From positions 360,001-392,000 of the forward strand of contig NC_007969.1 of assembly GCF_000013905.1 (NCBI RefSeq): DNA of 32,000 nucleotides, in the 5' to 3' direction. A program made the translations under genes and the position numbers. Every line of letters starts with the position of its first letter. Within the stretch, counting starts at the first letter, position 1. Under the pieces are notes generated by a model that was not told where the DNA came from, ran no database searches, and worked only from the letters and a program-made list of their open reading frames with translations. Of the stretch, positions 2,505 through 28,628 are shown one piece after another. The DNA is from Psychrobacter cryohalolentis K5. Its GTDB lineage: Bacteria; Pseudomonadota; Gammaproteobacteria; Pseudomonadales; Moraxellaceae.

Positions 2505-3859
2505 TATTTCTTAGCCTTCTCTGCTTTAGAGTTGGTTGACTCAAAATTTTGTTGCTCATTATCATCATTTGCTAAGCTTTCTCTATTTTCAGCGTCAGCC
2601 TTTACTTTAGCAGTAATTAGATCATCTTCCGCTGTTATCGGGTTATTGATAGACGTTACCTTTTTATCAAGACCAACTTTATTAGGCAGTACGGCGACCA
2701 GCTTTGCCAATGCAGGCTCTAAGTCAGCTACATCATTGGGCATCAAGGTAATATGGGCAATTTTACGGTCATCGCGCTCCGCTTTATGATAGCTGTGATA
2801 ATGCACGCCGTCGATATTGAGCACTTCGCTGATATCAGGATATTGCCCCAAGACATTAATCATAATTGCTGGATAGACATTGTCAGTATCGCCTAGTGGC
2901 AGATTGACTACGGCACGAATATGATTCTCAAATTGGCTGGTGACAGCACCTTCAATACTCCAATGACCAGAATTGTGCACGCGTGGCGCTATCTCGTTGG
3001 CAAGTAGAGTATCATTGCCGCGAGCGTCTTTGGTCACAAATAGCTCAAGCGCCATAACCCCAACATAGCCCAAATGATTCATGACGTTGGTAATAGCATC
3101 AGTTGCTTGTTTGAATAAATGACTGGTACCAATAGCTGGTGCTTGGGTTTTGGCCAAGATACCCTGATGATGATGGTTTTCGACCAAATCATAACAGCGT
3201 ACCTGACCGTTTTGACCTCGTGCGGCGATGATAGAAAGCTCCCGACTAAAGTGAATAAAACCTTCAGCAATCAATGGCGCTGGCGTTTGCGTCAGTGAGC
3301 CTGTACCCGTAACTGCATCCTTTAGCTCTTGCCAAGCGGCTTTGATATCACTGTCTTGTCTGATCACAAACTGACCTTTGCCATCATAACCGCCGCGACT
3401 GGTTTTAAGTACGATAGGTAATCCAAGCTTATGACAAGCTTGCTGTAATTCCGCCTCTGAACTAACAGACACGAAAGGTACGGTTGCGATATCAAGCGTA
3501 TTAAACATCTGCTTTTCTTTTAAGCGATCTTGCGCAATATCTAGGGCAATCGTTGGCGGAAACATGCCTTGTTTGCTGCCAGATTTTGATAGATTTGCTA
3601 GTTGCTGAACGGTAGCAGTTGGGGTATTTTCAAACTCCAAAGTGAAGACGTCAGCTGCTTCAATAAAAGCATCTAATTGCTCGCTGCTAAAAACGCGCCC
3701 ATATAGACTGGCCGGACAGTCAGCGCTGTCTTCCAAAAACACACAGTGATAGCCCAATGGCATAGCCGCTTGTGCCAGCATCATGCCAAGCTGACCACCG
3801 CCTAAAATACCAATGGTGCGGATAGTTTGAGTAACAGGGTAAGCGTTCGCTATGGTCAT
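2504..3859 (-). CDS. purK: 5-(carboxyamino)imidazole ribonucleotide synthase (N5-CAIR synthetase) with a charged C-terminal extension of about 55 aa
   Basis: It has the GILGGGQLGMMLA N-terminus and the ATP-grasp core (LKTSRGGYDGKGQ, ELFV...LLANEIAPRVHNSGHW). At 451 aa it is longer than the roughly 355-390 aa typical of PurK. Confidence 0.92.
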   Translation of the reverse strand: MTIANAYPVTQTIRTIGILGGGQLGMMLAQAAMPLGYHCVFLEDSADCPASLYGRVFSSEQLDAFIEAADVFTLEFENTPTATVQQLANLSKSGSKQGMFPPTIALDIAQDRLKEKQMFNTLDIATVPFVSVSSEAELQQACHKLGLPIVLKTSRGGYDGKGQFVIRQDSDIKAAWQELKDAVTGTGSLTQTPAPLIAEGFIHFSRELSIIAARGQNGQVRCYDLVENHHHQGILAKTQAPAIGTSHLFKQATDAITNVMNHLGYVGVMALELFVTKDARGNDTLLANEIAPRVHNSGHWSIEGAVTSQFENHIRAVVNLPLGDTDNVYPAIMINVLGQYPDISEVLNIDGVHYHSYHKAERDDRKIAHITLMPNDVADLEPALAKLVAVLPNKVGLDKKVTSINNPITAEDDLITAKVKADAENRESLANDDNEQQNFESTNSKAEKAKK

Positions 3860-3967
3860 GGCAGGCTCTTTGATTCAAATAAACAAGGGGTTAAATGCTT
3901 CAATATATAAAAATATAAATGCATATGGCTATAAAGGCTATAAAAGTCTAACGAGTTAAAATAGGAA

Positions 3968-3988
3968 AAGGTGCATTGTATGCACCTT
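3968..3988 (-). terminator. Possible weak terminator/attenuator hairpin in the purE-purK spacer
   Basis: A 9-bp stem AAGGTGCAT / ATGCACCTT encloses a 3-nt loop. On the minus strand only a short TTTTCC tract follows. Confidence 0.3.
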
Positions 3989-4100
3989 GTATTTAGTAAA
4001 ACTTATCTAAAAATAAATATCAAGTAAACCCGCTTATATTTAAAATTAACGATAAAAATGGTAAATATAATAATTATTTACCATTCACTTAAGCTAAATA

Positions 4101-4661
4101 CTAAGGATTGATAATACCGGGTGTTGGACTGGCAAGGATAGTATTGGTTTGGGTATTACGCAGATGGTCAAGTTTAGTAGCAATCGACTCATCATGCAAG
4201 GCAAGCACTTGAATAGCAAGCAGCGCAGCATTATAAGCGCCAGCGGATCCAATAGCTAATGTGCCAACTGCAACGCCTTTGGGCATCTGAACGATAGATA
4301 GTAAGCTGTCCCAACCACTCAGCATAGAGGATTTTACAGGGACACCAAAGACAGGTAGCGGCGTTTGACTGGCACACATACCGGGCAGATGAGCTGCTCC
4401 GCCAGCGCCAGCGATAATCACTTGCAAGCCGTTGCCTTTTGCGCTTTTAGCATAATCGAATAATCTGTCAGGCGTACGATGTGCTGAAACCACTTCACAT
4501 TCAAAGGCGATATCAAAGTCTGCAAGCAATTGTGCTGCTGCGCTCATGGTTGCCCAATCAGACTGCGAACCCATGATAATGCCAACTTTTGGTTGACCAA
4601 CAGGGGAGGTGATAGGTGCGTTCTGATCAGTAGCGTTAATCGTCGCTGAGATAATGCTCAT
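4101..4661 (-). CDS. purE: N5-carboxyaminoimidazole ribonucleotide mutase
   Basis: Class I PurE signatures are present: [28 protein letters not shown]. Confidence 0.95.
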
Positions 4662-4791
4662 GCTTTGATATCCTCAAAAAGACCATCATACAAAAATTTT
4701 GCTGTATTCGTAAAGCCAAGTTTGTGCTTTAATGCCAAATCACGCGTATAAAACATCATACATCTCAAAGATAGCCAAGTATGCGAGCCTC

Positions 4792-5736
4792 TTAATCATG
4801 ATGATATTGGATAAAACGACTGGTCTTCAACGGTAAAGGCTGCTCACTATCGAGCTGATAACAGGTCAGATAACCGCTATCGACGGCTGCCGAATAATCG
4901 GTACAGACAACTTGCGGACTAAGCGGTTCAGGCTCGCCCGTTAGCCAATAATGTCCGACAAAGACAGGTTTGTGAGTTTTCAGAGTGAAATCAATATTTT
5001 CAGCCAATACATCTTTAGGAATTTGTGCCAATGCCGATAAAGGTGCACGCGCTACTTCATAAAGACTGCGTGTATTCAACTTATCAAGCCACCAGCGTAC
5101 TCGTACGCGCGTGCGCTTGGCGCCTTCTTTATCGACCATCACTAAGCCTTTAGGCAGCGGCGTTTCAACGCCTTTTAATACGCGCTCTAATGCATCAAAT
5201 TCTACAGTACCTTCTCTAGAAGTGGCAATAAGCCCATGGGTTGTCAGGCAATTATTCTCTGTCAATAACGGCTGCAATATTTCCATACTATCGAAATCCC
5301 AACAAGCATGTACAAAGCAGGCATAGTCGGTTTCAAGCCACAAAGGAATCTCACACAAGCGTCGTAGCCAATATTGATGTGTCTCTGAACCAAAGGGTAC
5401 TTCTGCTAAAAACGCCTCATGCTGGCGGGTATGTATCTTATTATGTGAGCGCAGATATTGACTGCTATTATCAGGATCGAGGGTGGCAAAGGCGAGAGCA
5501 TTATATTCATGATTGCCCATCACCGCATCAGCGACATCGGCATCGAGCATAGCAAAAACGATTTCTAACGTCGCTACCTGCTGTGAGCCGCGATCAATCA
5601 AATCCCCAATAAATAGCGCACGATGACCAAATGGCGGTACAAAGTACTGACCATTATGCACATAACCCAGTTGCTGTAACAATCCAACCAGCTTGTCTGC
5701 ATAGCCGTGAATATCGCCGATAACATCTATAATCAT
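4792..5736 (-). CDS. Metallophosphoesterase (PPP-family Ser/Thr phosphatase / ApaH-like)
   Basis: The PPP metal-binding motifs occur in order: GDIHG, GDLIDRG, GNHE. Confidence 0.85.
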   Translation of the reverse strand: MIIDVIGDIHGYADKLVGLLQQLGYVHNGQYFVPPFGHRALFIGDLIDRGSQQVATLEIVFAMLDADVADAVMGNHEYNALAFATLDPDNSSQYLRSHNKIHTRQHEAFLAEVPFGSETHQYWLRRLCEIPLWLETDYACFVHACWDFDSMEILQPLLTENNCLTTHGLIATSREGTVEFDALERVLKGVETPLPKGLVMVDKEGAKRTRVRVRWWLDKLNTRSLYEVARAPLSALAQIPKDVLAENIDFTLKTHKPVFVGHYWLTGEPEPLSPQVVCTDYSAAVDSGYLTCYQLDSEQPLPLKTSRFIQYHHD

Positions 5737-12010: not shown

Positions 12011-14224
12011 ATGATGAAAAAACAACCAGCACAGTGGTTACTCAGTGCAGCGTCAGTGGGCATCGCAGGTTTAATTCTTACCCAGAGCTACGGCACTGCA
12101 GTAGCTGATACCAATACCGAAGGTTTTAAACAGACGCCTGAGCAACAGGTTACCACGCGCCAAGTAGCGGCATTGCTGGATCGCAGTCATTATCTTAATC
12201 AGCCACTGGATACAGCGACTGGTAGCGAGATTTTGTCTATGTATATCGATAGTCTCGATCCAAACCATACGTTGTTTTTGCAATCTGATGTTGATGAGTT
12301 TAAGAAAAAGTATGCCGATGAATTTGGTGCGCGTTTAAAGCGTGGTGATTTGTCTACTGGGGTAGAAGTATTTGAGCGCTATCGTAAACGCTCAAATGAG
12401 TATTTTGCCATGGCAAAAAAGATGCTAAAAACGGATATCAATTTGACCAGCAAGGATAACATTGTCCTTGACCGTGAAAAACTCAATCATTTTAAAACCA
12501 AAAAAGAGCAGCGCGACTATTGGGCAAGTCAGTTAAAGTTTCAGTTGATGAGTATTACTTTGGGTAAGGAAGATGAAAAAGCAAAAGAAAAAGTCTTTTT
12601 AGACAACCCAGATATCACGCGTGGTCAAGATTTGGTCCGTAATGATGAGCGCACGCCAAGTGAGATTTTACTAAACCGATTGTCTCGTCAGCAAGAGCAG
12701 TTTACCCGTCTCAAAGATGATGAGATTATGGAAACCATCTTAAACACGGCGATGCTGACCTACGATCCTCACAGTAATTATTACGCGCCAATTCAAGCCA
12801 ATGAGCTGCAAATACAATCTAGCCTACAGTTAGAAGGGATTGGGGTATCTATCCGCCCTGACCGCAAAAACCCAGACTATACCCGTATTGTTACCTTAGT
12901 CGATGGCGGTCCGGCAGCAAAATCCGGTCAAATTAAGCCCAACGATTTAATTATTGGTATTGCCAAAGACGGCGAGACCATGACCGATGTGGTTGGTTGG
13001 TCAACGCGAGAAATCGTCAGTCTGATTCGTGGTAAGCGCGGTACATCGGTGACGATTAAAGTTCGTCAGCCTAATACCCCTGATGCCAGCGCCCGTAATG
13101 TAACCGTGGTTCGAGATATTATTGCACAAGAAGAATCAGGCGTCACTCAGCGTGTTGTTGAAGTTCAGCGTCCAAATATCGATAAAACTCCGAAACGTAT
13201 CGGTGTTCTTGAAATACCAAGCTTTTATTTGAACTACCGAGCCCGCCGTAATGGTGAGGATTATCGTAGTGTCAGTATCGATACCGAAAAAGCATTGAAA
13301 GAGTTAAATAAAAAGAATATCGATGGCTTGGTCGTTGATTTGCGCAATAATCCAGGTGGCTCACTAGATGAAGTTGCCAAGATGCTTGGCTTCTTTATTA
13401 AGAGTGGTCCGCTAGTACAGATTCGTGATAATCGTGGCAATATTCAAGTCTACCGTGATGATGACGGTGGTGAGCAGCTATATGATGGTAAGGTAGTCGT
13501 TTTGACCAATCTTGCATCTGCGTCAGCAAGTGAGATTTTTGCTGCCGCTATCCAAGACTATGGACGTGGCTTGATAGTCGGTAGTACTACAACAGGTAAA
13601 GGCTCAGCGCAAATCCAATTAGACAGCTTGGCGCTTGGTTCTGCGACATTAACGCAGCGTAAATTCTATCGTATCACCGGTGGTAGTACGCAGAATAAAG
13701 GCGTGGTCCCTGATATTGAATTGGTCAACATCTATGACGATGCAACCTTTGGCGAGCGCGCACAGAAAAAGGCGCTGCCTTGGGATACAATTAAGACTGC
13801 ACCGTATAAGCCTGAAGGTAACTTCACGTCGAATACCTTGGCGACGCTAAACCAACAGTCGAAAATCCGCCAACAAAAAAATCCGCAGTTCGTTTATTTA
13901 TCAACGCTCAATGATATCCGTAATATGGAAGATGAGAAAAAACCAGTTGCGCTCGATATCAATAAACGCCGTGCCAAAATGCAGCTAATAGAAAAACGCT
14001 CCCTAGAGGCTGAGAACAAGCGTCAGATTGCAACTGGTGAGCGTCCTTATGCCAACTGGAATACTTATCAAGCGGCAATGGATGCAAAGTTTGAAGAGCG
14101 CAGTCAGATGAAGGCTGCTGAACGTCCAGAGCTACTAGAAGATGAAGCTTTCATTAATGAAGCGGCTTATATTATGCTCAGTGCTGAGCCAACAAAGCTG
14201 AGCAGTCCTGAAGAAAAGCTATAA
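12011..14224 (+). CDS. prc: Carboxy-terminal processing (tail-specific) protease, S41 family
   Basis: The 737-aa protein has a signal peptide, a PDZ region, the S41 core (DLRNNPGGSL, ASASEIFA) and a long Prc-type C-terminal domain. Confidence 0.92.
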   Translation: MMKKQPAQWLLSAASVGIAGLILTQSYGTAVADTNTEGFKQTPEQQVTTRQVAALLDRSHYLNQPLDTATGSEILSMYIDSLDPNHTLFLQSDVDEFKKKYADEFGARLKRGDLSTGVEVFERYRKRSNEYFAMAKKMLKTDINLTSKDNIVLDREKLNHFKTKKEQRDYWASQLKFQLMSITLGKEDEKAKEKVFLDNPDITRGQDLVRNDERTPSEILLNRLSRQQEQFTRLKDDEIMETILNTAMLTYDPHSNYYAPIQANELQIQSSLQLEGIGVSIRPDRKNPDYTRIVTLVDGGPAAKSGQIKPNDLIIGIAKDGETMTDVVGWSTREIVSLIRGKRGTSVTIKVRQPNTPDASARNVTVVRDIIAQEESGVTQRVVEVQRPNIDKTPKRIGVLEIPSFYLNYRARRNGEDYRSVSIDTEKALKELNKKNIDGLVVDLRNNPGGSLDEVAKMLGFFIKSGPLVQIRDNRGNIQVYRDDDGGEQLYDGKVVVLTNLASASASEIFAAAIQDYGRGLIVGSTTTGKGSAQIQLDSLALGSATLTQRKFYRITGGSTQNKGVVPDIELVNIYDDATFGERAQKKALPWDTIKTAPYKPEGNFTSNTLATLNQQSKIRQQKNPQFVYLSTLNDIRNMEDEKKPVALDINKRRAKMQLIEKRSLEAENKRQIATGERPYANWNTYQAAMDAKFEERSQMKAAERPELLEDEAFINEAAYIMLSAEPTKLSSPEEKL

Positions 14225-14277
14225 AAATTATTGTAAACTATTATCTATTCAGCTGCCCAAACTCTACGAAAAATACA

Positions 14278-14295
14278 CGTAAGCATATGCTTACA
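14278..14295. promoter_or_regulatory. GacA/UvrY-type upstream activating palindrome
   Basis: CGTAAG-CATATG-CTTACA matches the TGTAAG-N6-CTTACA consensus at 11 of 12 specified positions. It contains the perfect 16-bp palindrome GTAAGCATATGCTTAC (14279-14294). Confidence 0.55.
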
Positions 14296-14351
14296 AGGAT
14301 TGACGTTTAGACCTCTTACTTAGTATGGGTCAATCTGCGATTATACATCTA

Positions 14352-14555
14352 CGGCACGATTGAACTGAAAGGTTCAGAGGTACTAGGGATTGGTATCTGG
14401 AAAGTCGCATAAGGGATAGGTAGTTTGCTGATTAGGGATGATAGGGCTGGATGCCCGACCGTTATAAAATACTTCGGGATTAAGTATTGAATGACAGTAA
14501 CATGGATGGTTGGTAATAAAAGCCGCATAATGCTAGTCATTATGCGGCTTTGTTA
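14352..14555 (+). ncRNA. Candidate Csr/Rsm-family (CsrB/RsmY/RsmZ-like) CsrA-sequestering small RNA; the 5' end is approximate
   Basis: There is no credible ORF here. Seven GGA motifs lie on the plus strand, four of them as (A/C)GGGAU. GGA sits in the loops of hairpins 14378-14398, 14444-14456 and 14468-14488. A -10-like GATTAT/TATACA lies at 14339-14347, and a 14-bp-stem terminator at 14519-14551 is followed by UUUGUU. Confidence 0.55.
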
Positions 14556-14628
14556 CGTCTGGGCTTCGTGATATTTTAAAGGTCTTAATTTCAAGTAAGT
14601 GCAAATAAAAACCTTTGAATTTGCTCAT

Positions 14629-14660
14629 AAAAAAGGGTCAATAGAAAAATCTACTGACCC
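14629..14660 (-). terminator. Rho-independent terminator of slyD
   Basis: The stem GGGTCAATAG / CTACTGACCC (one mismatch) is followed on the minus strand by T6 (A-run 14629-14634 on the plus strand). Confidence 0.7.
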
Positions 14661-14725
14661 CTTGCAACAAAGGATGGGCTTCATCACTCATTGCTTATGC
14701 ATCTAGCACAATAATCTATAAGAGA

Positions 14726-15211
14726 TTAGTGTTCAACGCCACCTGCGCCATGTACATGACCGTGGTTTAGTTCATCTTCAGTAGCAGCACGTACTTCTTG
14801 GATTTCAACATCAAAAGTCAAACGCTTGCCAGCTAGTGGATGGTTTGCATCAACAGTCACTTCTTTGTCACTGACGGCAGTCACAGTAACTAGCATCACT
14901 TGACCACCAGCTTCTGACTGAAACTGCATACCAGGCTGGATATCTTCAACGCCTTGGAAGTTGTCACGTGGTACATGTTGTACCGCTTGTTCTTGGTATT
15001 CGCCGTAACCATCAGCAGGCTCAACAACAGCATTAACTCTTTCGCCAGCAGATTTACCTTCTAGTTGTTGCTCTAGACCTGGGATGATATTACTGTGACC
15101 ATGCAAATAAGCAAGTGGTTGACCTTCTGGAGATTGGTCAAGGATATTACCTTCGTCGTCTTTTAGCGTGTAGTTGAACTTGACGGCAGTGTCTTTTGCG
15201 ATAGTAGTCAT
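14726..15211 (-). CDS. slyD: FKBP-type peptidyl-prolyl cis-trans isomerase / metallochaperone SlyD
   Basis: It is colinear with E. coli SlyD (LAYLHGHSNIIPGLEQQLEG..., VDANHPLAGKRLTFDVEI..., ELNHGHVHGAGG), with a short His-rich tail. Confidence 0.92.
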   Translation of the reverse strand: MTTIAKDTAVKFNYTLKDDEGNILDQSPEGQPLAYLHGHSNIIPGLEQQLEGKSAGERVNAVVEPADGYGEYQEQAVQHVPRDNFQGVEDIQPGMQFQSEAGGQVMLVTVTAVSDKEVTVDANHPLAGKRLTFDVEIQEVRAATEDELNHGHVHGAGGVEH

Positions 15212-19391: not shown

Positions 19392-20651
19392 ATGTCATAT
19401 AACAAGGTTATCGTACCAATAAACGGCGAAAAAATAACCGTAAATGCTGATTTATCCTTCAATATTCCAAATCATCCGATCATTCCCTTTATCGAAGGCG
19501 ATGGCATCGGCGTTGATATCACACCTGTCATGATTGAAGTGATTGATGCGGCAGTTGAAAAAGCTTATAAAGGCAAAAAGTCCATCGTTTGGATGGAGAC
19601 CTATTGCGGTGAAAAAGCCTCTAAAATTTATGACGGCGAATTTATGCCAGAAGAGACGCTTGATGTGTTGTGTGATTATGTCATCAGTATAAAAGGTCCG
19701 CTGACCACGCCAGTTGGCGGTGGTATGCGCTCGCTGAACGTGGCAATGCGACAAGAGCTTGATTTGTACGTTTGTCAGCGTCCTGTACGTTGGTTCGAAG
19801 GCGTTCCAAGTCCTGTCCAACATCCTGAGTTGACTGATATGATTATTTTCCGCGAAAACTCAGAAGATATCTATGCCGGTATCGAGTGGAAAGCAGGCAG
19901 TGAGGATGCCAAAAAAGTCATTAAGTTTTTAAAAGAAGAGATGGGCGTGACACAGATTCGCTTTTCAGAAGATTGTGGCATTGGTATCAAGCCAGTATCA
20001 AAAGAGGGCTCACAGCGTTTGATTTGTAAAGCGATTCAGCACGCCATCGACAATGACTTGCCCAATGTGACGCTTGTGCATAAAGGCAATATTATGAAGT
20101 TCACTGAAGGCGCTTTTAAAGAGTGGGGATATGAAGTTGCTACTGAGTGCTTTGGTGCTCAATTACTAGATGGTGGCCCTTGGATGACGATAACAAATCC
20201 TAAGACGGGTCATAAGATTGTGATTAAAGATGTGATTGCGGATGCGTTTTTGCAGCAAATCCTGATGCGTCCAGCTGACTACTCAGTGATTGCGACATTA
20301 AACCTAAACGGCGACTACATCTCTGACGCGTTAGCCGCGCAAGTCGGTGGTATCGGTATTGCTCCGGGTGCTAATAAAGGAGTTGCTATTGCCGTATATG
20401 AGGCAACCCATGGTACAGCTCCAAAGTACGCCGGACAAAACAAAGTCAATCCGGGTTCGCTTATTTTGTCAGCTGAGATGATGTTACGTGATATGGGCTG
20501 GACAAAGGCCGCTGACTTGGTCATCGAAGGTATCCAAGGTGCTATCAAAAATAAGACCGTGACCTACGATTTTGAACGCTTGATGCCGGATGCCACCTTA
20601 CTGAGTACCTCTGAGTTTGGTAAAGCAATCATCAAACATATGAATGCGTAA
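19392..20651 (+). CDS. icd: NADP-dependent isocitrate dehydrogenase, homodimeric type
   Basis: The 419-aa protein is colinear with E. coli Icd ([53 protein letters not shown]). A strong AAGGAG RBS is present. Confidence 0.95.
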
Positions 20652-25994: not shown

Positions 25995-27251
25995 ATGTTT
26001 AAAGATATCTCTATCAAAGATTTTGATCCAGTACTTGCTGAAGCTATGGCTGCTGAAAGCGTTCGTCAAGAGAACCATATTGAGCTTATCGCTTCAGAAA
26101 ACTACTGCTCACAAGCAGTGATGGAAGCGCAGGGTACTGATTTGACCAACAAATACGCTGAAGGCTATCCTGGTAAGCGCTATTACGGTGGTTGTGAGCA
26201 TGTTGACGTCGTTGAGCAACTAGCTATTGACCGTGCAAAAGAATTGTTTGGTGCAGAATATGTGAACGTACAGCCACACTCTGGTAGCCAAGCAAACTCT
26301 GCTGTCTTTTTAGCATTGCTTGAAGCCAATGATACTGTGCTTGGCATGAGTTTAGATGCTGGTGGTCACTTAACGCATGGCGCACATATCAACTTCTCAG
26401 GTCTAAACTACAATGCAGTACAGTATGGTTTGGTCGAAGGCACTGGTCTTATCGATTATGACCAAGTTGAGAGCTTGGCAAAAGAGCATAAGCCTAAAAT
26501 GATCATCGCTGGTTTTTCAGCGTATTCACAAGTAGTTGATTGGGCGCGTTTCCGTGAAATCGCTGACGAAGTAGGCGCTTACTTACTAGTCGATATGGCT
26601 CACGTTGCTGGTCTTATCGCTGGCGGCGTTTACCCAAGCCCAGTACCATTTGCTGATGTAGTGACCACGACTACGCACAAAACCTTACGTGGCCCACGTT
26701 CAGGTATGATTCTTGCTCGTGATGAAGTACTTGCTAAAAAGCTCAATTCTGCCGTATTCCCAGGTAACCAAGGTGGCCCGTTGATGCATGTCATCGCGGC
26801 AAAAGCAGTTTGCTTTAAAGAAGCATTAGAAGAGAACTTCAAAACCTATCAGCAGCAAGTGGTTAAAAACGCTCAAGCCATGGCGAAAGTCATTCAAGAT
26901 CGCGGCTACGAAATTATCTCTGGTGGCACTGAAAACCATCTGATGCTTATCAGCTTAGTTAAGCAAGAGATGACCGGTAAAGAAGCGGATAAATGGTTGG
27001 GTGACGCACACATTACGGTCAATAAAAACGCCGTACCAAACGATCCAAAATCTCCGTTTGTGACTTCTGGTATCCGTATTGGTACACCAGCGATTACCAC
27101 TCGCGGCTTCAACGAAGCACAAGCAGGTGATTTGGCAGGTTGGATTTGTGATGTTCTTGACAGCCGTGGCGATGAAGCAGTGACTGCTGAAGTACGTGGC
27201 AAAGTAGAAGCGATCTGTAAAGAGCTTCCTGTCTATGCTAAAAACCAGTAA
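25995..27251 (+). CDS. glyA: Serine hydroxymethyltransferase
   Basis: The 418-aa protein is near-canonical GlyA ([33 protein letters not shown] with the PLP lysine). Confidence 0.97.
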
Positions 27252-27283
27252 TTTCTAATTAATTGGTTTTATAAGTCAGAAAT

Positions 27284-27319
27284 AAAAAAACCGCTTAGCT
27301 TTTGCTAGGCGGTTTTTTT
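27284..27319. terminator. Bidirectional rho-independent terminator (glyA / gltS)
   Basis: The stem CCGCTTAGC / GCTAGGCGG has the loop TTTT and is flanked by A7 and T7. Confidence 0.8.
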
Positions 27320-27353
27320 GTGAGTATATGAATCAGCTTTTTATTTCATCAAA

Positions 27354-28628
27354 TCACATAAATGGCAATTTGGTGAATATCTGCAAGATCGTCGCGTTAA
27401 CGATATCAACGAAGAATGCACCAACCATAGGTACAATTAAAAATGCCTTATGTGATGGTAGGTAACGATCGGTGACCGCCTGCATATTGGCAATGGCTGT
27501 AGGAGTTGCACCCATACCGAAACCACAGTGTCCTGCTGACAAGACAGCTGCATCATAGTCTTTGCCCATGAGTTTGAAGGTCACAAAGTAAGCATAGCCA
27601 ATCATTAGAACAGTTTGTGACAATAAGATGATCAATACCGGACCTGCCAAATCTGTCAATTGCCACAGCTTTAATGACAATAATGCCATCGCTAAGAAAA
27701 GACTCAAAGAAGCGTTACCGATGACGTCAATCGCACGGTCAAACATATCAAAGTTAAATACCATGGTTAAGGTATTGCGCAAAATCACACCACCTGCTAA
27801 TGCCCATACGAAGGTCGGTAACTCAAACCATGTATCCTGTGCTACCAAAGTCATGAGATCAGCAAATGCCAATGCTGCGGCAAACAGTGCCAATGATTCA
27901 ATGGTAGACGATGCCGTAATCAGACGGATATTATCCGGTTTTTCAAACATCTCCTTATTGCTGTGAACTTCCTCTTCGCTGTGCTTGGTGCTATAGAGCG
28001 ACTGCTCACTTGCCAGTTTTTCAACATCACTTGGGTTTGGATTGTCTGCTGTAGGCTTGAGACCAAGCTTTTTAATCAAGCGACGGGCAACAGGACCACC
28101 GATAATACCACCTGCTACTAAACCATAAGTGGCAACTGCGATACCCAGCGTCGTCGCGCCAACCACACCATACTGCTCCTCCAAAGTAATGCCCCAAGCA
28201 CCAGCAGTACCATGTCCACCAGTCAAAGCGATTGAACCGGTCACCAAGCCAAGCAAAGGATCAAGCCCAAGTGCGCTTGCCATTGCAACACCAAGGATGT
28301 CTTGCAAAATGATAAAAACAGACACGATAATGGTGAAAATCAGCAAGGGTGAGCCACCTGCTTTTAACCGACCAAAATCAGCGCTAAGCCCGATAGAGGC
28401 AAAAAACATCAGCATGGTCGCTGTTTGCAGTCCTTGATGGAAATTAAAGCTATAGCCCCAAACAATATTAAGAATATAAACGACAATCGCTGCGACCAAA
28501 CCGCCTGCGACTGGTTCTGGAATATTGAAGTCTTCTAAAAACTTAATTCTTTTGACTAAGAAGCGTCCAAGCAAAAGTACTAATGTGGCTAATATCAGGG
28601 TGTAATAGCCGTTTAGGGTGATTTCCAT
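27354..28628 (-). CDS. gltS: Sodium/glutamate symporter
   Basis: The 424-aa polytopic protein resembles E. coli GltS at its N-terminus (FLEDFNIPEPVAGGL) and throughout. It has a longer hydrophilic central loop. Confidence 0.9.
   Translation of the reverse strand: MEITLNGYYTLILATLVLLLGRFLVKRIKFLEDFNIPEPVAGGLVAAIVVYILNIVWGYSFNFHQGLQTATMLMFFASIGLSADFGRLKAGGSPLLIFTIIVSVFIILQDILGVAMASALGLDPLLGLVTGSIALTGGHGTAGAWGITLEEQYGVVGATTLGIAVATYGLVAGGIIGGPVARRLIKKLGLKPTADNPNPSDVEKLASEQSLYSTKHSEEEVHSNKEMFEKPDNIRLITASSTIESLALFAAALAFADLMTLVAQDTWFELPTFVWALAGGVILRNTLTMVFNFDMFDRAIDVIGNASLSLFLAMALLSLKLWQLTDLAGPVLIILLSQTVLMIGYAYFVTFKLMGKDYDAAVLSAGHCGFGMGATPTAIANMQAVTDRYLPSHKAFLIVPMVGAFFVDIVNATILQIFTKLPFM

Follow-up and report, generated by a model that had tools for sequence, protein, structure and literature searches.

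A conserved gene for a structured small RNA in the prc–slyD spacer of Psychrobacter, probably a GacA-activated decoy for CsrA

Here we describe the spacer between prc and a slyD-like gene in Psychrobacter cryohalolentis K5, which lies in a 32,000-nt stretch of DNA (NC_007969.1, positions 360,001 to 392,000; hereafter the window, whose numbering is used throughout). Comparison with relatives gives good support for a conserved gene in this spacer, encoding a structured small RNA (sRNA) of about 205 nt. We consider it probable that this is a stand-alone gene for a GacA-activated decoy RNA of the Csr/Rsm type—an RNA whose GGA motifs would bind the regulator CsrA. The locus is already known, having been predicted by computer in 2006. 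What is new is the comparative proof, a promoter geometry common to other unannotated RNA families, and the presence of tandem genes downstream of prc homologues; a second-tier prediction thereby becomes a defined gene with boundaries, a promoter, a structure, six sites, and a genus-wide covariance model.

The Prc protein was used as the query, with one genome per species, and returned 80 Psychrobacter loci in which Prc identity runs from 83% to 97%; the closest is P. glacincola, and P. arcticus 273-4 is not named among them. One locus, L015, stops before the spacer, leaving 79 with the spacer present. At 76 of the 80 loci a BLAST match directly 3' of prc begins at 14270 or 14279 and ends at 14562, so that the matched block spans the sequence from a GacA-type palindrome to the end of a terminator tail, while there is hardly any match in the 45 nt that precede the block or the 160 nt that follow. 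A covariance model of the RNA (R1) scores 225.7 bits in the window and 77–254 bits in 49 orthologues, and alone recovered a diverged copy that BLAST missed (L078, 77.5 bits), bringing the total to 77 of 79. At the other two loci—L079 (Psychrobacter sp. bablab_jr014; 5200-5420) and L080 (P. aestuarii; 5200-5410)—the sRNA gene is missing, with no match by BLAST or model R1; the prc–slyD spacer there measures only about 220 nt, and two intrinsic terminators stand back to back in it. The earlier note on this DNA, made from the letters of the window, had proposed looking in relatives for conservation of the box, the GGA loops, and compensatory stem changes; the box and the GGA loops are conserved across 77 Psychrobacter loci whose flanks drift, and compensatory exchanges occur in the stems. 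Elsewhere in the window, R1 gives weak matches on both strands at 27197-27457 (17–19 bits), with no box nearby; these are probably due to a terminator hairpin between two convergent open reading frames (ORFs).

The structure of the RNA was tested by covariation, using a hand-drawn model of seven helices. In a MAFFT alignment of 48 distinct orthologues (A1), pairing holds in 95.8% of cells, and substitutions on both sides are seen at 27 of the 47 pairs; when partners are slid by 1–3 columns only 5–13 compensatory pairs appear, and 500 column shuffles never attained the values observed. A second, model-guided alignment of 50 sequences (A2), which leans towards the structure it was fitted to, gives 96% pairing and 31 compensatory pairs out of 47 (6–15 in slid controls), and the two alignments agree in the overall picture. 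The stems hold 270 G-U cells versus 51 A-C cells, and 96% of cells pair when read as the plus strand versus 86% as the minus; the excess of G-U over A-C identifies plus as the functional strand. Additionally, the segment 14350-14560 folds better than its shuffles (minimum free energy z = -3.4). Conservation and covariation together exclude chance, and the comparison sets both the boundaries of the gene and its plus-strand polarity.

The helices differ in how much they contribute to this signal. The strongest covariation is in hairpin 5 (Table 1), where 10–11 of 12 pairs are compensatory. The terminator helix is 99.7% paired and has 9–10 of its 12 modelled pairs compensatory. The 14-bp perfect stem that the earlier note described there is indeed present. 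In hairpin 4 the closing AU pair is exchanged for GC in 10–11 sequences. The 5' hairpin, which carries no GGA, takes another register in the most divergent lineages.

Seven GGA trinucleotides lie on the plus strand of the spacer, starting at 14387, 14399, 14414, 14436, 14449, 14477, and 14504, and none on the minus strand; no 170-nt segment on the plus strand of the window holds more than seven (mean 1.09). The earlier note had listed these seven correctly, together with four sites in an (A/C)GGGAU context, which are three AGGGAT and one CGGGAT. Six of the seven are conserved: among 50 orthologues the GGA is kept in all 50 for hairpins 1, 2, 3, and 5, in 41 for hairpin 4 (the remainder having AGA or similar), and in 49 for the single-stranded site next to the terminator, which reads ACAAGGAUGG in divergent lineages. 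The seventh, at 14399, is not conserved among orthologues. In hairpin 1 the sequence UAGGGAUU is invariant, as is GGGAU in the loop of hairpin 5.

Partition-function folding of each orthologue alone places these conserved motifs in exposed positions: the probability of being unpaired is 0.79 for GGA bases versus 0.33 for the rest, and the greater exposure of GGA is seen in every one of the 50 orthologues. Individual sites reach 0.99 (hairpin 1), 0.98 (hairpin 5), and 0.86 (single-stranded site). Loops that stay constant while their stems drift by compensation are a signature of protein-binding motifs presented in loops. The note had counted three GGA motifs in hairpin loops; the three hairpins that it named are correct, but five of the six conserved sites are loop-exposed. 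Likewise, its first hairpin, AGGUAC/GUAUCU, can be formed, but the conserved form is the GUACUA/UGGUAU stem listed in Table 1. Two side observations touch on the motif counts. The only other place in the window with seven GGA in 170 nt is on the minus strand at about 19680-19850, with no GacA-type box, inside an isocitrate/isopropylmalate dehydrogenase ORF (19392-20651); this cluster is presumably a coding-sequence effect. In the orthologue at L058 (5321-5538), a 9-nt insertion duplicates part of the GGAUGAUAG segment and raises the GGA count to 9, an example of motif gain via local duplication.

The same data bear on the view that the region has no function, being made of terminators with chance GGA motifs, or that it holds a small protein gene on the minus strand. 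An ATG-started ORF of 63 aa does run along the minus strand at 14349-14540, and one minus-strand coding region elsewhere in the window equals the GGA density. However, minus-strand ORFs that start with ATG reach 7 aa in the nearest relative and no more than 43 aa in any orthologue. The block itself is conserved, the lengths of its indels are not divisible by three, its covariation fits RNA helices, and GGA sites stay invariant while the adjoining stems vary. We regard this view as refuted and give it practically no weight. The 63-aa frame, the only ORF in the spacer, was rejected as a gene for its lack of conservation, in keeping with the note's statement that the spacer has no credible ORF.

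Upstream of the RNA lies the palindrome CGTAAGCATATGCTTACA, which fits the GacA/UvrY consensus TGTAAG-N6-CTTACA at 11 of 12 specified positions, as the note had it, and is the sole match with at most one mismatch within the 32-kb window. Its core, GTAAGCATATGCTTAC, is nearly invariant across 73 distinct orthologous spacers, most of which have the perfect TGTAAGCATATGCTTACA. The centre of the box is about 64.5 nt upstream of the predicted start.

A promoter module follows the box (Table 1). The -10-like element that the note had placed at 14339-14347 is present, but is better read as the hexamer GATTAT with an upstream TG, that is, as an extended -10. Its geometry is fixed across 57 unique box-linked promoters, including those of other sRNA families. 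TTAACA or TTACTA occurs at +21 to +26 past the box in 29 of them, (G/C)A(T/C)TAT at +44 to +49—exactly 43 nt past the box—in 38, and (C/T)ACGGCA at +55 to +61 in 33; in most box-linked promoters of other sRNA families (A/T)TGACG also stands 5–11 nt past the box. A conserved -35/-10/start module argues that the RNA gene has its own promoter. A simple promoter/terminator scan listed neither the sRNA promoter nor the sRNA terminator; the -10 was missed because the -35 is weak. Box, promoter elements, GGA loops, and stems are all under purifying selection.

Table 1. Coordinates of the predicted small RNA gene, its parts, and its neighbours in the window
Feature	Position	Strand	Remarks
GacA/UvrY-type upstream activating palindrome CGTAAGCATATGCTTACA	14278-14295	.	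core GTAAGCATATGCTTAC at 14279-14294
Promoter-proximal element ATTGACG	14299-14305	+	conserved in orthologues
-35-like TTACTT	14316-14321	+	within conserved CCTCTTAC; 17 nt upstream of -10
Extended -10, TGC + GATTAT	14336-14344	+	hexamer 14339-14344, TG 14336-14337; TCTGCGATTATA highly conserved in orthologues
Start-region TACGGCA	14350-14356	+	conserved; equivalent (C/T)ACGGCA in box-linked promoters
Predicted small RNA, ~205 nt	~14351 to ~14558	+	probable 5' end A14351 (range 14351-14354); 3' end in U-tract past terminator
5' hairpin UGAAC/GUUCA, no GGA	14361-14376	+	87–88% paired; 3 of 5 pairs compensatory
GGA hairpin 1, GUACUA/UGGUAU, loop GGGAU	14380-14396	+	GGA 14387-14389; helix 98.7% paired
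GGA hairpin 2, loop AGGGAUA	14408-14422	+	GGA 14414-14416; relatives' stem CAUC/GGUG, 88–91% paired, CG to UA exchanges
GGA hairpin 3, AUUA/UGAU, loop GGGA	14431-14442	+	GGA 14436-14438; 97% paired, AU to GC exchanges; GGA in 50 of 50
GGA hairpin 4, GGGC/GCCC, loop UGGAU	14444-14456	+	GGA 14449-14451; helix 99% paired
GGA hairpin 5, GUUAU/AUGAC + AAUACUU/AAGUAUU, loop CGGGAUU	14461-14495	+	two-part stem; GGA 14477-14479
Single-stranded GGA site ACAUGGAUGG	14500-14509	+	GGA 14504-14506; just upstream of terminator
Intrinsic terminator	14519-14556	+	14-bp stem 14519-14532/14538-14551, loop CUAGU, tail UUUGUUA
prc	12011-14224	+	tail-specific protease; Peptidase_S41, TSP_NTD, PDZ domains
slyD-like gene, FKBP-type	14726-15211	-

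GGA-rich RNA genes accompany the exact box at other loci too. In metagenomes the exact 18-mer was found at 120 loci, with 105 box occurrences that have complete flanks; for each we asked whether a 260-nt stretch with at least six GGA and at most one TCC lies beside the box. This is so for 77 of the 105, always on a single side; of random windows taken from the same contigs, only 2.8% pass. Model R1 identifies 18 of the first 80 metagenome loci as orthologues, and about 35 others, which it matches weakly, are different GGA-rich RNA genes. When 19 metagenome loci with box-linked GGA-rich RNAs were searched against Rfam, the only match was to a tRNA. That the identical palindrome recurs before many GGA-rich RNA genes is an argument for a regulator site over a merely local hairpin. 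Among these loci there is at least one further box-linked sRNA family, which starts CACGGCAT(T/C)AGGGAATGTGACTCAAGGATTGAG and has 8–10 GGA (L084, L086, L087, L108, L122, L127, L136, L143, and others); those of its loci that were tested have no Rfam match.

This linkage has to be set against a different account of the locus, in which the RNA is for the most part a prc 3'-end product, made by read-through to the terminator at 14519-14551 and then by processing, and in which the palindrome is chiefly an RNA hairpin serving as a prc 3' stabilizer or weak terminator; such an RNA could still sequester CsrA. Among core-clade Psychrobacter the palindrome extends beyond the 18-bp box: the flanking bases are perfectly palindromic, giving arms of 12–18 nt, in a region corresponding to 14270-14303 of the window (for example L003 5253-5282, L035 5241-5270, and L062 5242-5279). 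The flank letters vary by species—GCAT, GCGT, CCAT, CTAT, TGAT, ATCT, and others—and therefore covary, and the RNA hairpins predicted in these relatives reach -24 to -26 kcal/mol, which fits selection for a hairpin. A classic prc terminator stands right past the stop codon in L079 and L080, which have no sRNA, and in the L099 lineage described below; in the window's clade no clear terminator for prc stands before the sRNA, and some of the RNA could therefore be prc read-through.

The promoter data point the other way. The -35/-10/start module at fixed spacing from the box is also found at unrelated GGA-rich genes with no prc upstream of them, and copies of the exact 18-bp sequence occur at many loci, as would not be expected of a locus-specific terminator. 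The hairpin of the palindrome has no U-tract after it, and the extended arms are absent in the window and in the most divergent lineages, whose arms reach only 8–9 nt. On balance we judge a mainly prc-derived RNA to be unlikely. The extended palindrome may possibly have a second role as a prc 3' hairpin, and 'palindrome correction' by template switching is an alternative cause of flank covariation that involves no selection. A simple scan had also called the palindrome a minus-strand terminator; we rejected this call, since the A-run lacks conservation and slyD is separated from the palindrome by a strong bidirectional terminator.

In metagenome contigs, prc homologues at 67–70% identity also precede box-driven GGA-rich RNA genes, up to three of them in tandem. 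Locus L099 carries three tandem box-driven, AGGA-rich sRNA genes (3034-5170) downstream of a prc homologue at 67% identity, and three are likewise found at L111 (boxes at 2405, 3567, and 4201) and L172 (boxes at 10, 1159, and 1793). These tandem genes keep the promoter geometry of the window RNA—box, 43 nt, GATTAT, then ACGGCA—and the L099-type terminator is nearly identical to the window's (AAAAGCCGCATA...TATGCGGCTTTGTT). The 3' halves of the two kinds of RNA align, covering GGA hairpins 4 and 5, the single-stranded GGA, and the terminator, behind the same GacA box. The L099-type RNAs differ in their greater length (the first L099 gene measures about 335 nt), in having more AGGA-type sites, in occurring as one to three tandem copies, and in their 5' halves, which do not align.

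Judging from these arrangements, the position 3' of prc has the look of an ancient locus where the number of gene copies (0, 1, or 3) and the flavour of the motifs vary. A bolder proposal, which we offer only tentatively, is that it is an evolvable cassette locus for Csr-type sRNA genes in Psychrobacter and its relatives, with fixed promoter and terminator modules between which the GGA body and the copy number vary by lineage, and that the single low-density GGGAU RNA is a specialized sponge and not a redundant copy. The states of such a cassette would be none in P. aestuarii, one GGGAU-type RNA in the window, and up to three tandem AGGA-rich RNAs beside the prc homologues. If this were true, the window's sponge might have a lower affinity, different kinetics, or a second partner; within the same proposal, the extended palindrome around the box might in addition serve as the prc 3' hairpin.

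Another account is a structured regulatory RNA with a different job: a base-pairing sRNA, or a decoy for a protein other than CsrA, with the GGGAU loops as its recognition element. Four sites share (A/C)GGGAU in place of the AGGA/ARGGA typical of CsrB, RsmY, and RsmZ, the RNA matches no Rfam Csr/Rsm model, and CsrA binding is a prediction. The invariant core of the RNA is, however, GGA in short hairpin loops, and its 3' half aligns with AGGA-type sRNAs that have the same promoter and terminator. The promoter bears a GacA box, and the known direct targets of GacA are mainly Csr/Rsm sRNA genes. In addition, the single-stranded site ACA(U/A)GGAUGG is close to RUACARGGAUGU, reportedly the CsrA consensus that Dubey et al. 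in 2005 obtained by systematic evolution of ligands by exponential enrichment. Such another job seems to us improbable, and rather more so than an origin from the prc transcript.

Several further points weigh against a Csr/Rsm decoy. Some concern the sequence itself: the window's box has C at position 1; the stem of hairpin 2 is degenerate in the window, with 2 of 4 pairs and a probability of only 0.39 that its GGA is unpaired; GGA density is low for the class, at 6–7 in about 205 nt; most sites are (A/C)GGGAU and not the usual A(N)GGA; and in the window's clade the prc stop (14224) is not separated from the sRNA by any intrinsic terminator. Others concern its standing. Rfam 15 at gathering score has no match anywhere in the window, and the models for CsrB, CsrC, RsmX, RsmY, and RsmZ (PrrB_RsmZ), which the earlier note had proposed as a check, gave none in 14200-14730 even at E<=10, nor did the other Csr/Rsm models; the RNA is an analogue of these families or a new sequence family outside them. 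The corresponding prediction in Psychrobacter arcticum was placed in a lower-confidence table owing to its low AGGA/ARGGA density (PMC1488887), and our literature search found no experiments on Csr RNAs in Psychrobacter or other Moraxellaceae. With E. coli CsrA as the query, tblastn found no csrA in the window, the 80 genome loci, or the 120 metagenome loci—as expected of such short stretches—and with E. coli UvrY it found in them only a weak response-regulator match. That Psychrobacter has csrA and gacS/gacA rests on the literature: the search of Kulkarni et al. was confined to species with CsrA homologues, P. arcticum included (PMC1488887), and BarA/GacS orthologues form a Moraxellaceae branch (PMC8639471). 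The permissive Rfam search of the spacer yielded only matches below threshold, such as one to a trpB ncRNA motif (14511-14619, minus strand; 33 bits versus a gathering score of 59); they owe their scores to the bidirectional terminator hairpin and were dismissed as chance.

Despite these points, the decoy that the earlier note had suggested finds support in the conserved box and GGA loops, the compensatory stems, the plus-strand G-U pairs, the exposure of GGA, and the linkage of the box to other GGA-rich RNAs. In the mechanism that we propose, phosphorylated GacA (UvrY; GacS/GacA corresponds to BarA/UvrY) would bind the palindrome about 65 nt upstream of the start and activate a sigma-70 promoter with a weak -35 and an extended -10. 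A plus-strand RNA of about 205 nt would then be made, with a predicted 5' end and ending at the terminator at 14519-14551, and would display six conserved GGA, five in loops and one single-stranded by the terminator. These six could bind about three CsrA dimers, titrating CsrA away from the ribosome-binding sites of its target mRNAs and so relieving CsrA control.

The setting gives such a gene its interest. In gammaproteobacteria the Gac/Csr cascade is a master switch of lifestyle, acting on carbon storage, biofilm, and stress tolerance, and Psychrobacter is a cold-adapted genus that serves as a model for permafrost life and food spoilage. The window RNA and several box-linked RNA families from metagenomes are not in Rfam, so genome annotation misses them; the result is useful for annotation in this respect. 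It is not conceptually surprising; the gene would be an ordinary member of a well-known regulatory class.

The surroundings of the gene match their earlier description. The spacer between the convergent genes, given as 500 bp in the note, measures 501 nt (14225-14725). The sRNA terminator, with its upstream A-tract, could also stop minus-strand read-through from slyD.

Among the closest known systems are the Pseudomonas RNAs RsmX, RsmY, and RsmZ, which are roughly 110–130 nt long. Like them, the window RNA has TGTAAG-N6-CTTACA at an rsmY-like distance (about -65 here versus about -75), GGA motifs in loops, one unpaired GGA before a Rho-independent terminator, and a stand-alone intergenic gene; unlike them, it is longer, with lower GGA density and a GGGAU flavour, and shows no sequence or structure homology detectable with Rfam at E<=10. 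In P. aeruginosa the GacA sites lie at about -75 for rsmY and at -196 for rsmZ (PMC4950607). CsrB and CsrC of the Enterobacteriaceae, and CsrB1-3 of Vibrio, follow the same logic—they are activated by BarA/UvrY, and their repeated GGA loops sequester CsrA dimers. These RNAs have many more sites and another variant of the upstream site, and the window RNA has no match to CsrB or CsrC in Rfam; the counts given for the motifs of E. coli CsrB, which is about 360 nt long, run from 16 to 'over 18' (PMC1488887, PMC12716042).

The nearest relative by position is the computer prediction of 2006. Kulkarni et al. (Nucleic Acids Res 34:3361, Table 2; PMC1488887) list an 'rsmX' between prc and slyD, with the orientation -> -> <-, in Psychrobacter arcticum 273-4, and describe its upstream site as strong and of the rsmY type and its AGGA/ARGGA motifs as few, with GGA located in predicted loops; in the same genome they also predict an rsmY (Psyc_1521/1522) and an rsmZ (inside Psyc_0155). 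By their five sequence criteria, the window gene is intergenic, enriched in GGA (at low density by the stricter AGGA/ARGGA count), exposes its GGA, ends in a Rho-independent terminator, and has an upstream activating sequence. The P. arcticum rsmX is a second-tier prediction in another species, matched here by arrangement and description; it shares with the window locus the genus, the flanking genes, the orientation, the upstream site, and the GGA loops.

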